Shown one piece after another: positions 3,001 to 6,000 of a stretch of 64,000 bases of DNA; position 1 is the stretch's first letter, and each line of letters opens with the position of its first letter. The position numbers are program-made. The stretch is taken from NCBI RefSeq assembly GCF_013167455.1, contig NZ_CP038328.1. One strand, written 5' to 3'. The DNA comes from Escherichia coli O157:H7 (GTDB lineage: Bacteria > Pseudomonadota > Gammaproteobacteria > Enterobacterales > Enterobacteriaceae).

Positions 3001-6000
3001 AAGCTGAAAATGGCGCTGTAAAAGGCGCCATTTTCATATTGTAGACAACGTAGGCTTTGTTCATGCCGGATGCGGCGTGAACGCCTTATCCGGCCTACAA
3101 ACCGTTCAAATCCAATAGATTGCAGTGAACGTGTAGGCCTGATAAGCGTAGCGCATCAGGCAATGTTGCGTTTGTCATCAGTTTCAAATGGCGCTGTAAA
3201 AGGCGCCATTTTTTATTGCGCAACCAGACGGCGTAATCGCGACACATCCACCGTTTTTGCAGCCTCTGCCAGACTCCAGGCGTTTTGCAGATTCAGCCAC
3301 ATTTGCGGCGAACTGCCGATCACCACGGAAAGTTTAATTGCCATTTCTGGCGTCAAAGCTGCTTTTCCGGTCAGCAATCGGCTTGCCGTTGAGGGAGCAA
3401 TTTCCATTGCTCTGGCAAACTCGCGCAGGCTGACATTAAGTTCGTCCAGTGATTCCTGAATAATGTCCCCCGGGCGGGGATGATTGGCCATTTTCATTAG
3501 TGTCTTTACTCTCAGTAGCGTTCCTTCTCTGGGAACACTATCATTATTGTTCCTTCCTACGCAACAATAATCCATTTAGCCATTTCATGTTGGAGAGTGT
3601 GCGATGCTGCGACCCGAACATGGGAGTCGCAGCAAAGGCCTCTTAGCGGCGGAAATCAATCACCATACGGCCACGGATTTTGCCTTCTTCCATCTCGGTA
3701 AAGATGGTGTTGATGTCCGCTAACGGACGCAGGGCGACTTTCGGCACCACTTTACCTTCGGCGGCAAACTGGAAGGCTTCAGTTAGATCCTGGCGCGTGC
3801 CGACCAGCGAACCGACCACCTCAATGCCATCCAGCACAAGACGTGGGATATCCAGGCTCATAGACTCCGGCGGCAGACCGACAGCCACAACACGACCGCC
3901 TGCACGGACAGCATCAACTGCCGAGTTAAACGCAGCTTTAGCTACTGCTGTTACCACCGCAGCGTGAGCGCCACCGGTTTTCTCCTGCACAATTTTGGCG
4001 GCGTCTTCGGTGCGTGAGTTAATCGCTAAATCTGCACCCATTTCGGTTGCCAGTTTTAACTGCTCATCATTGACATCAATGGCGATCACTTTCGCGTTAA
4101 AGACATTCTTCGCGTATTGCAGGGCGAGGTTACCCAGACCGCCAAGACCGTAGATAGCAATCCACTGCCCGGGACGAATTTTTGACAGCTTAACGGCTTT
4201 GTAGGTGGTGACCCCCGCACAGGTAATGCTGCTGGCCGCCGCCGAGTCCAGACCATCTGGCACTTTTACCGCGTAATCGGCGACCACGATGCACTCTTCC
4301 GCCATCCCGCCATCAACGCTGTATCCGGCATTTTTAACTGAACGGCAGAGCGTTTCGTTACCACTGTTACAGTATTCGCAATGACCGCATCCTTCGTAGA
4401 ACCACGCCACGCTGGCACGATCGCCTGGTTTTAATGAGGTGACACCTGGACCCACTTCTGCCACCACACCAATCCCTTCATGGCCCAGAATTACGCCGGT
4501 TTTGTCACCAAAATCGCCATTCTTAACATGAAGATCGGTATGACATACACCACAACACTCCATTTTCAGCAGGGCTTCGCCATGTTTCAGTGAGCGCAGT
4601 GTTTTATCCGTAACGTCAACATGATGATCCTTCGTAACAACTGCAGCCTTCATAGTTCCTCCTTTTCGGATGATGTTCTGCATAGCAGGTGAGGCAAATG
4701 AGATTTATTCGCCACTACCCAGTATGGATGAGATCTGAAAAAGGGAGAGGGAAATAGCCCGGTAGCCTTCACTACCGGGCGCAGGCTTAGATGGAGGTAC
4801 GGCGGTAGTCGCGGTATTCGGCTTGCCAGAAATTATCGTCAATGGCTTGTTGCAAAGCTTCGGCAGACGTTTTCACCGCCACGCCTTGCTGCTGCGCCAT
4901 TTTGCCAACCGCAAACGCAATTGCGCGGGAGACTTTCTGAATATCTTTTAGTTCCGGTAGTACCAGACCTTCGCCGTTCAGGACCAGCGGCGAATACTGG
5001 GCAAGCGTTTCACTTGCCGACATCAGCATCTCATCGGTGATACGTGACGCGCCGGAAGCAATAACACCCAGCCCGATGCCCGGGAAAATAAAGGCGTTGT
5101 TACACTGGGCGATAGGGTAGATTTTATCTTTCCATACCACTGGATTAAACGGACTGCCCGTGGCGACCAGCGCGTTACCTTCAGTCCAGGCGATAATGTC
5201 CTGCGGTGTGGCTTCCACGCGTGACGTCGGGTTGGACAGCGGCATCACGATCGGACGCGGACAGTGTTTATGCATCTCACGGATGATCTCTTCCGTAAAC
5301 AGCCCGGTCTGTCCTGAGACGCCGATCAGAATATCTGGTTTTACATTGCGCACCACATCCAGCAGTGACAGCACATCGCTGTCGGTATCCCTGTCACTGA
5401 GGTTTTCGCGCTTCTGCACCAGTTTGGTCTGGAAAGGCAGCAGGTTCGGCATCTTGTCGGTCAGCAGGCCAAAGCGATCGACCATAAAGACTTTCTGCCG
5501 CGCCGCTTCCTCGCTTAATCCTTCGCGCTGGGTCTGGGCGATGATCATTTCGGCAATGCCGCATCCCGCTGAACCTGCGCCAAGGAAGACGATTTTTTTC
5601 TCGCTTAACTGACCACCTGCCGCGCGGCTTGCTGCGATCAGGGTGCCGACTGTTACCGCCGCGGTGCCCTGAATGTCATCGTTAAAGGAACAAATTTCAT
5701 TGCGATAGCGGTTAAGTAACGGCATCGCATTTTTTTGAGCAAAGTCTTCAAACTGCAACAGCACGTCTGGCCAGCGTTGTTTCACAGCCTGGATAAATTC
5801 ATCAACGAATTCATAGTATTCGTCGTCAGTGATACGCGGATTACGCCAGCCCATATACAGCGGATCGTTAAGCAGCTGTTGGTTGTTCGTTCCGACATCC
5901 AGCACCACCGGAAGGGTATACGCCGGGCTGATGCCGCCACAGGCGGTATAGAGCGACAGTTTACCGATCGGAATGCCCATCCCGCCGATGCCCTGGTCAC

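Follow-up and report, generated by a model that had tools for sequence, protein, structure and literature searches.

The block of repeats that separates the convergent genes fdnI and yddM in Escherichia coli O157:H7 is probably a single insertion of a non-coding, mobile BIME-1 (RIB/RIP, REPIN-like) element at a stem-loop that the two genes share, an insertion in which the whole stem-loop was duplicated. The features of this region are listed below by their positions in the window, by which we mean the whole 64-kb stretch of DNA that was analysed.

2332..2985, plus strand: fdnI, formate dehydrogenase-N gamma subunit, last gene of fdnGHI (open reading frame and RefSeq annotation)
3008..3034, no strand: fdnI-side stem-loop copy (full stem 3005-3016 / 3025-3036)
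3035..3064, plus strand: left outer arm, CATATTGTAGACAACGTAGGCTTTGTTCAT in the window and CAGATTGTTGACAAAGTGCGCTTTGTTCAT in the family consensus
3065..3098, plus strand: Y-type REP (palindromic unit), GCCGGATGCGGCGTGAACGCCTTATCCGGCCTAC, with a sub-threshold naRNA4/REP match (Rfam)
3099..3132, plus strand: long linker with an IHF-site-like motif, CAAATCCAATAGATTGCAG in the window and ATTCAATAGATTG in the family consensus
3133..3161, minus strand: short Z-type REP, inverted, which we take to be Z1 and which differs from the long Z2 REPs beside rayT; GTAGGCCTGATAAGCGTAGCGCATCAGGC on the plus strand
3162..3185, plus strand: right outer arm, AATGTTGCGTTTGTCATCAGTTTC in the window and AATTTTGCGTTTGTCATCAGTCTC in the consensus
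3186..3212, no strand: yddM-side stem-loop copy, followed by a T-run (TTTTTT) through 3214
3213..3497, minus strand: yddM, HigA-family antitoxin, an orphan in the window; convergent with fdnI

The direct repeat AAATGGCGCTGTAAAAGGCGCCATTTT, which the initial annotation had given as 26 bp at 3009-3034 and 3187-3212, is real but measures 27 nt, its copies at 3008-3034 and 3186-3212 being 100% identical and spaced 178 bp apart. These are the only 2 matches within the window, even when up to 3 mismatches are allowed, against an expectation of 0 from 100 shuffles. The yddM-side copy, ending at 3212, does adjoin the yddM stop codon (3213-3215, minus strand) as had been described, and the fdnI-side copy keeps an upstream A-run and has just 4 T between the stem-loop and the start of the element. 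Every hairpin copy that was folded gave a stable stem-loop on both strands, with -20.8 kcal/mol (plus strand) and -18.7 kcal/mol (minus strand) for the fdnI-side copy, and -16.9 and -13.6 kcal/mol, respectively, for the yddM-side copy. The fdnI transcript continues into the hairpin region.

Between the two copies lies an element of 151 bp (3035-3185), in agreement with the roughly 150 bp of bracketed REP units first noted, that consists of an outer arm, a Y REP, a 34-nt linker, an inverted short Z REP and a second outer arm. The first 15 nt of the left arm and the right arm are imperfect inverted repeats of each other at the termini of the element; the family consensus is 152 bp long, 12 of its 15 terminal positions match in inverted orientation, and the whole consensus can fold back on itself from one end to the other (-65 kcal/mol under RNA and -36 under DNA parameters). 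The 34-nt linker is conserved throughout the family (its consensus ATTCAATAGATTG lies 1 mismatch from WATCAANNNNTTR, the window copy about 2), and the window element as a whole departs from the consensus at about 14 positions. The outer arms are common to the elements at mgtA-ridA and tsx-yajD, and the element with its outer arms was found in 81 copies across six Escherichia lineages; the species scan of the family comprised 67 loci, with fdnI-yddM outside that set. Rfam yielded only REP-derived, sub-threshold matches on the element (naRNA4, and ES036/CssrF for the linker at E = 0.0011) and no informative family.

A comparison across E. coli genomes, set beforehand as the test, showed that not all genomes share the arrangement in the window. 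Of 5,426 complete genomes, about 37% (about 1,930-2,097) carry one hairpin and no element in a 50-bp intergenic region (L002), the stem-loop being preceded by A4 and followed by T7. The window-type allele, with an intergenic region of 227 bp, is present in 38% (2,069), and a K-12-type allele with two tandem 178-bp units and three hairpins is present in 18% (955); the K-12 intergenic region of 406 bp corresponds to 2.2 copies of the 178-bp unit. Roughly 5% of the genomes have an IS200 in the T-run of the hairpin, which stays single copy.

The same footprint was found at other loci. At 12 of 26 independent stand-alone insertions drawn from six Escherichia lineages, a 16-27-nt direct repeat (median 21.5) of the local stem-loop touches both ends of the element within 0-5 nt, and 10 of these 12 repeats score above the maximum of the 650 mismatched flank pairs that served as control. 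The repeat matches the extent of the stem-loop within 0-3 nt, and is longer or shorter according to the local stem-loop. About half of the 26 insertions have no two-sided repeat; most of these have a one-sided stem-loop (about a third of the insertions) and a few have none. The footprint is then either lost over time or not a necessary result of insertion. At the convergent pairs rutG-ymdF, agp-yccJ (L080 versus L082) and pitA-uspB (L081 versus L083), a single local stem-loop is present in short alleles, against two in filled ones. In particular, rutG-ymdF has one hairpin in L077 and is filled in opposite orientations in L078 (K-12) and L021, with the duplication in both. Short alleles with two hairpins were not encountered at fdnI-yddM, rutG-ymdF, agp-yccJ or pitA-uspB. 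Tandem arrays of hairpin plus element occur at further loci (L016, L034, L037 and L069). At gudD-barA both orientations are present and no clean short allele was found, and mgtA-ridA was rejected as a short/filled pair, the element there being essentially fixed and the locus uninformative. From these sequence comparisons we conclude that insertion appears to duplicate the whole target stem-loop; the REP-associated duplication that the initial annotation had proposed is thus upheld both by the genomes with one hairpin and no REP block and by the same bracketing at many other insertions.

The alleles at fdnI-yddM might instead record loss, the filled state being ancestral and the single-hairpin alleles having arisen by recombination or slippage between the copies (precise excision). 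We consider this unlikely, albeit deserving of serious attention. Filled alleles are spread over phylogenetically diverse strains (UTI89, ATCC 25922, O157:H7 and K-12). Bachellier reportedly described 'excisions' of whole BIME-1 elements in 1997. PMC1187871 cites Bachellier 1997 for the presence or absence of BIME-1 among isolates, and direct repeats of the kind represented by the 27-nt copies are known deletion substrates (PMC2884548). However, the loop of the single-hairpin allele, TTTAAGAAG, is no left/right chimera of the present loops TGTAAAAGG and TTTATAAGGTG, which argues that this allele is not a recent deletion product, and loss would leave the origin of the duplication unexplained. 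In principle, the single-hairpin allele at fdnI-yddM could be an ancient precise excision rather than the ancestral state.

It is distinctly improbable that the hairpin was copied by a separate, later event, for instance through slippage or because a stalled fork switched templates, or that a prior tandem pair attracted the element. The one-sided stem-loops could represent intermediates of such a process, and the insertion of IS200 into this hairpin left no duplicate; a separate event would nevertheless have to account for repeats that abut both element ends at 12 independent loci, for duplication in both orientations at rutG-ymdF, and for the absence of a two-hairpin short allele at four loci, and a second, precisely placed independent event at each locus would be unparsimonious.

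The perfect identity of the two copies in the window, limited as it is to one lineage, could be taken to indicate that the element inserted very recently within the O157:H7 lineage, a reading that we dropped as very improbable. In many other lineages this element occupies the identical site and the hairpin copies have diverged; 3-5 differences separate the copies in most one-element genomes, diverged copies were seen in A24, OkiPb01709 and K-12, and the identical yddM-side copy is confined to 322 genomes of the O55:H7/O157:H7 lineage. The divergence of the window element from the family consensus also speaks against recency, and the yddM-side copy in the window joins a loop of the fdnI-side type to the T-run of its own side, as gene conversion or contraction of an array would give. 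We infer that the perfect 27-nt identity probably reflects later homogenisation, in which the fdnI-side version would have overwritten the yddM-side copy in the O55:H7/O157:H7 lineage through gene conversion or tandem-array contraction. Lastly, we give virtually no credence to two independent conserved terminators, for fdnGHI and yddM, with REP units merely accumulating between them: two terminators are plausible for convergent genes, each copy forms a stable fold and a terminator scan accepts the one on the yddM side, but this reading is refuted by the single-hairpin alleles, in which one hairpin in a 50-bp spacer serves both genes in about 37% of genomes so that two terminators are not universal, and by the family-wide pattern, in which locus-specific hairpins bracket at least 12 unrelated insertions, and the copies are moreover homologous (27/27 in the window, 3-5 differences elsewhere).

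How insertion with stem-loop duplication might proceed can be proposed only tentatively. The BIME-1 mechanism may recognise stem-loops that have been extruded, most often bidirectional intrinsic terminators, and open them at the stem base, in which case every insertion would duplicate the entire stem-loop. At fdnI-yddM the target was probably the single shared, bidirectional intrinsic-terminator-like stem-loop between the convergent genes. The strands would be opened by staggered cuts, one on each side of the stem base, at points that would be adjacent if the palindrome were extruded as a hairpin or cruciform; this step of cruciform formation and stem-base cutting is conjectural. Gap filling after joining of the element would then copy the stem-loop onto both sides, the fdnI-side copy retaining the upstream A-run and the yddM-side copy the downstream T-run. 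Insertion takes place in either orientation, and the two hairpin copies subsequently serve as substrates for unequal recombination, which gave rise to tandem arrays of hairpin plus element such as the K-12 allele.

Both copies are predicted to function as terminators. The earlier suggestion that they serve the convergent transcripts holds in part when sequence alone is considered, in that the yddM-side copy, with T6 on the plus strand, passes a simple scan on that strand only, whereas the fdnI-side copy, with T4 on each strand, fails it. Both transcription units would retain a hairpin with 3-4 U nearby and an intact hairpin with its U-run farther on, and the cost of insertion is therefore predicted to be small; read-through transcripts would gain REP stem-loops in their 3' ends. 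Induction of fdnGHI is known only under anaerobic conditions with nitrate, so the operon was probably silent in the cultures behind the published K-12 Term-seq data. The supplementary tables of Adams 2021, which bear on the K-12 allele only, hold no 3' end between MG1655 positions 1,551,992 and 1,552,397. The same tables (Adams 2021) give a bicyclomycin-sensitive minus-strand 3' end at 1,551,885, inside fdnI, which points to Rho-dependent read-through.

BIME-1 elements have been described as mosaics of Y, L linker and Z1 of about 140 bp that bind IHF and lie at the 3' ends of transcription units (PMC3333891), and that are present or absent among isolates (PMC3333891, PMC1187871). The unit composition of BIME-1 versus BIME-2 is given in the same papers (PMC3333891, PMC1187871) without unit lengths. 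The block in the window has the same make-up, with one Y REP, a long linker that includes a candidate IHF site and one inverted short Z REP in 151 bp of extragenic DNA between convergent stop codons, and it too is absent from a large share of isolates; the K-12 allele departs from BIME-1 in having two tandem units. Like REPINs, the element contains two inverted REPs that form one long hairpin, and is non-coding, dispersed and polymorphic. REPINs are thought to be mobilised by RAYT transposases, for which transposition of the IS200/IS605 type (Y1, HUH) is the proposed model. Such transposition creates no target duplication, in contrast to the 16-27-nt duplication at 12 of 26 insertions and at all four short/filled locus pairs. 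K-12 rayT was rejected as a parent of the element; its flanks consist of Y and long Z2 REPs with short linkers, and have neither Z1 nor the CAGATTGTTGACAAA / TTTGTCATCAGTCTC arms. The accessible literature, which does not extend to the key BIME originals of 1991-1999, contains no mention of terminal inverted repeats formed by outer arms, nor of a duplicated hairpin flanking BIME-1 or REPINs, and offers only presence/absence polymorphism and tandem REPIN clusters in Pseudomonas fluorescens that 'include the flanking sequences' (PMC3116915).

The element also shares with MITEs (Correia, ERIC, RUP) a small size (152 bp in the consensus), the lack of coding capacity, terminal inverted repeats (12/15 positions matching), flanking direct repeats of the target and insertion in either orientation. 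The target duplications of MITEs are of a fixed, short length (2-9 bp) set by the transposase, whereas the length of the repeats described here follows the size of the local stem-loop. Group IIC introns target intrinsic terminators, and IS1397, ISKpn1 and IS621 sit in REPs; in these systems, as with IS200 and the element described here, a DNA stem-loop at gene 3' ends guides the choice of target. To our knowledge, none of group IIC introns, IS1397, ISKpn1 and IS621 duplicates a whole hairpin, and the IS200 allele at fdnI-yddM likewise differs from the filled alleles in keeping one copy.

REP/BIME sequences are the most abundant repeats of E. coli, and the mechanism of their spread has been debated for some 40 years; we know of no observation of REP/BIME transposition in vivo. 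A reproducible footprint that is the size of a stem-loop, occurs in both orientations and is seen at several loci where short alleles can be matched with filled ones constrains this mechanism. No target duplication is expected under the favoured RAYT model, and the footprint speaks against simple insertion in the IS200/IS605 manner for BIME-1-type elements. The footprint offers an exact signature to look for in trap assays and in genomes from evolution experiments. It explains the build-up of elements at convergent gene ends without disrupted termination, the 'flanking' sequence carried in tandem REP arrays, and the steps of about 175-178 bp in intergenic length among strains at such sites, which are useful for typing and are a caveat for the annotation of 3' UTRs and terminators. 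If the mechanism that we tentatively propose is true, BIME-1 insertion would duplicate a target as large as the structure itself, which no characterised class of transposon does, harmless siting at gene 3' ends would be explained by both neighbours keeping a terminator, and the duplicated hairpins would seed unequal crossing-over, explaining tandem arrays and perhaps BIME-2-like arrays with odd linkers.

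The sequence AAATGGCGCTGTAAAAGGCGCCATTTT is present in the window as two direct repeats of 27 nt (3008-3034 and 3186-3212) that are 100% identical and spaced 178 bp apart; with up to three mismatches allowed, no further match was found across the 64-kb window, the number expected by chance being 0. Both copies fold stably on the plus and minus strands (-13.6 to -20.8 kcal/mol). They bracket a 151-bp segment made up of five parts, and a search for repeats bore out the initial annotation in its description of the hairpin pair, the REP block and the adjacency of the yddM stop codon:

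fdnI, end at 2985
3008-3034, fdnI-side hairpin copy
left arm, 30 nt
3065-3098, Y REP
linker, 34 nt
3133-3161, short Z REP, inverted
right arm, 24 nt
3186-3212, yddM-side hairpin copy
3213-3215, minus strand, stop codon of yddM (HigA-family antitoxin gene), touching the second hairpin copy

Elsewhere in the window, an isolated REP-like inverted pair (GCCGGATGACGCGTCAGGCGCATGAATGCCTGATGCG, 7878-7915) lies directly 3' of a stop codon, with neither BIME-1 arms nor a flanking duplication.

At two other loci, mgtA-ridA and tsx-yajD, the non-REP arms of the element again accompany this REP pair. When species-representative genomes were scanned for a 22-mer that runs across the boundary between arm and Y REP, 81 copies turned up at 67 loci, from E. 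albertii, E. coli (two representatives), E. whittamii, two Escherichia sp. and Pseudocitrobacter. The consensus of 39 complete copies is 152 bp long and has CAGATTGTTGACAAAGTGCGCTTTGTTCAT as its left arm, then the Y REP, AAAAACATGCAAATTCAATAGATTGCAGAGATTAC as linker, the short Z REP in inverted orientation, and AATTTTGCGTTTGTCATCAGTCTC as its right arm; its ends are inverted repeats matching at 12 of 15 positions, and its entire length folds into a single long hairpin. This anatomy agrees with that published for BIME-1, in which Y and Z1 are joined by a long linker reported to bind IHF; BIME-1 is ~140 bp long, occurs as a single copy and is present in some isolates and absent from others (PMC3333891, PMC1187871). 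That the short Z unit is Z1 is supported by the long Z units flanking rayT, which are of the Z2 type. In particular, the K-12 rayT flanks (L084, 3460-3540 and 4140-4340; L numbers denote comparison loci from other genomes) carry, on both sides, Y REPs and long Z2 REPs joined by short linkers, as in BIME-2 and in agreement with the literature, and in these flanks neither the arms of the element nor its Z1 unit was found, so the arms do not point to rayT as the parent. Unlike BIME-1, a tandem array in Escherichia sp. MOD1-EC7003 (L059, 11573-12400) contains at least six units of 160 bp in which the left arm and Y REP are joined to a REP of another type and to non-REP sequence.

Among 5,426 complete E. 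coli genomes, the lengths of the fdnI-yddM spacer fall into discrete classes, and thus the hairpin-element-hairpin arrangement is polymorphic rather than universal.

Alleles of the fdnI-yddM spacer in complete E. coli genomes (approximate counts)
Single hairpin (ctgAAAATGGCGCTTTAAGAAGCGCCATTTTTTTattgcg), no REP: spacer 50 bp; ~1,930-2,097 genomes
Window type, one element: spacer 227 bp; ~2,069 genomes
K-12 type, two elements with three hairpins (a 178-bp unit repeated 2.2 times): spacer 406 bp; ~955 genomes
Single hairpin with IS200 inserted in its T-run: ~250-330 genomes
IS4 or deletion variants: few genomes, rarer

The IS200 (in E. coli strain 631, L003, 1689-2393, at the site orthologous to ~3035 of the window) occurs at fdnI-yddM in ~5% of these genomes. 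It lies within ~4 nt of where the BIME-1 element inserted, so that an element with a Y1 transposase and one of the BIME-1 kind chose the same stem-loop. In strain LR-28 (L004, 1826-3200), an IS4 lies within the hairpin copy on the yddM side, beside a small deletion, and in E. coli 55989 (L006, ~1296-2400) the element at mgtA-ridA has IS621 (IS110 family) inside its Z REP; other insertion sequences thus use BIME-1 sites as secondary targets. (Note that a 184-bp contig filed under Bacillus coahuilensis m4-4 [L032, NZ_ABFU01000103.1] is identical to the inter-unit junction of the K-12-type allele, including the middle hairpin with GGCGTC, and almost certainly stems from contamination of that assembly with E. 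coli K-12 DNA.)

Three further loci, each between convergent genes, have a short allele with one stem-loop and a filled allele with two. At rutG-ymdF, the short allele (L077) has a single CACCGCCGGTTACCCCGGCGG followed by TTTT, whereas the element lies in one orientation in K-12 (L078) and in the opposite orientation in another E. coli (L021), flanked in each case by two hairpin copies; the element inserted twice, independently, at this terminator. At agp-yccJ, K-12 has the short allele (L080, single CTCCCCCGCTTCTCGCGGGGGAG), and the filled one is found in strain S1 together with 88 further genomes; at pitA-uspB, the short allele (L081) has a single GAGCGGGTCAGTTTACTGGCCCGCT, and K-12 and ~1,940 genomes are filled. 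At all four loci, fdnI-yddM included, the duplicated segment is the maximal stem-loop, 0-3 nt off. The mgtA-ridA element likewise has a copy of a different, local hairpin at each of its ends. Throughout the scan set, the same locus-specific G+C-rich stem-loop repeatedly stands on both sides of the element, with the A-run staying upstream of the left copy and the T-run downstream of the right. When array-internal copies and orthologues were excluded, a direct repeat of 16-27 nt (median 21.5) abutted both element ends in 12 of 26 independent stand-alone insertions, 10 of which outscored all 650 mismatched flank pairs; in most of the other 14, a strong stem-loop remains on just one side. Hairpin duplication is therefore a general footprint of the BIME-1-type element, and the single-hairpin alleles, together with this recurrence, support the initial reading of the window as a footprint of REP-associated duplication.

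The whole target stem-loop is duplicated along with the insertion, the length of the duplication tracks the stem-loop and has no fixed value, and the element, whose ends are precise, inserts in both orientations. IS200/IS605-type insertion, in contrast, leaves no duplication (a single hairpin copy accompanies the IS200 at fdnI-yddM), and the duplications of MITEs are of a fixed short length. We infer that the two strands would be opened at the two sides of the stem base, at positions that are 16-27 bp apart in the linear duplex and that extrusion of the palindrome would place side by side; once the element has been joined, gap filling would then copy the stem-loop to both sides. The cuts might be made by a transposase working on the hairpin or cruciform; in the other case, a junction-resolving nuclease would make them and an excised element would then be captured. 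Elements of this class are already known, as is their presence or absence at a given site, and the duplication may have been described before: in a literature search that did not extend to the key 1991-1999 BIME papers, we found neither a stem-loop-sized target duplication nor its generality, nor insertion in two orientations at one terminator, nor a role in seeding tandem arrays.

Once formed, the hairpin copies, as direct repeats 178 bp apart, serve as substrates for unequal exchange. The K-12 fdnI-yddM allele is a tandem duplication of hairpin plus element, and similar arrays occur elsewhere (L016, with four units, L034, L037 and L069). In Pseudomonas, tandem REPIN clusters "including the flanking sequences" were reported by Bertels & Rainey and left unexplained (PMC3116915). 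Several unrelated MOD1-EC7003 loci (L061, L065, L073 and L075) hold element-hairpin-element dimers that share one inner hairpin, aggccgaacccggcct, which is local to L061, and the L073 array is bracketed by a duplication of the hairpin proper to the L073 locus; arrays at these loci seem to move as composites with a captured foreign hairpin.

The fdnI-side loop at fdnI-yddM is TGTAAAAGG, the yddM-side loop in A24, OkiPb01709 and K-12 is TTTATAAGGTG or TTTATAAAGTG, and that of the single-hairpin allele is TTTAAGAAG. In those three strains the two copies have 3-5 differences from each other and both are distinct from the single-hairpin allele; the insertion is therefore old. We rejected the single-hairpin allele as a recent deletion product, since it matches neither copy of the filled allele. 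The yddM-side copy of the window combines the fdnI-side loop with the yddM-side T-run and is confined to 322 genomes of the O55:H7/O157:H7 lineage; the perfect identity of the window copies is thus secondary, a later homogenisation through gene conversion or array contraction.

At the start of yddM, K-12 Term-seq tables place a strong minus-strand RNA 3' end (MG1655 1,552,652) just past the hairpin CCCCGCCCGGGGG (window ~3464-3482, minus strand, within the first 30 nt of yddM), which may mark the terminator of adhP or an attenuator that overlaps the start of yddM. Strain A24 (L009, 1668-1946) has a RelE/ParE-family toxin gene immediately upstream of yddM; at that position K-12 and the window (3498-3642) have only ~145 bp, so the HigA-type antitoxin gene yddM is an orphan in the window.

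In the single-hairpin allele, an A-run, stem-loop and T-run are common to the two convergent genes, and the ancestral hairpin looks like a classical bidirectional terminator. After insertion, the fdnGHI transcript would meet the hairpin followed by UUUUCAUAUU, the element, and the hairpin followed by UUUUUUAUU, the last being the only one to pass a simple terminator scan; the yddM transcript would meet the hairpin followed by AUUUGAAAC and later the hairpin followed by UUUUCAGC. Since a hairpin and a run remain in each direction, predicted termination capacity is plausibly kept on both sides of the element. The fdnGHI operon was, we presume, probably unexpressed in the cultures of Adams et al. 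2021. These authors list no RNA 3' ends at the K-12 fdnI-yddM hairpins, and they report that in K-12 a minus-strand 3' end, dependent on Rho, falls 106 nt into fdnI, which implies read-through of all three hairpin copies. Read-through RNAs would end in REP stem-loops, structures for which stabilisation of upstream mRNA has been reported in the literature.
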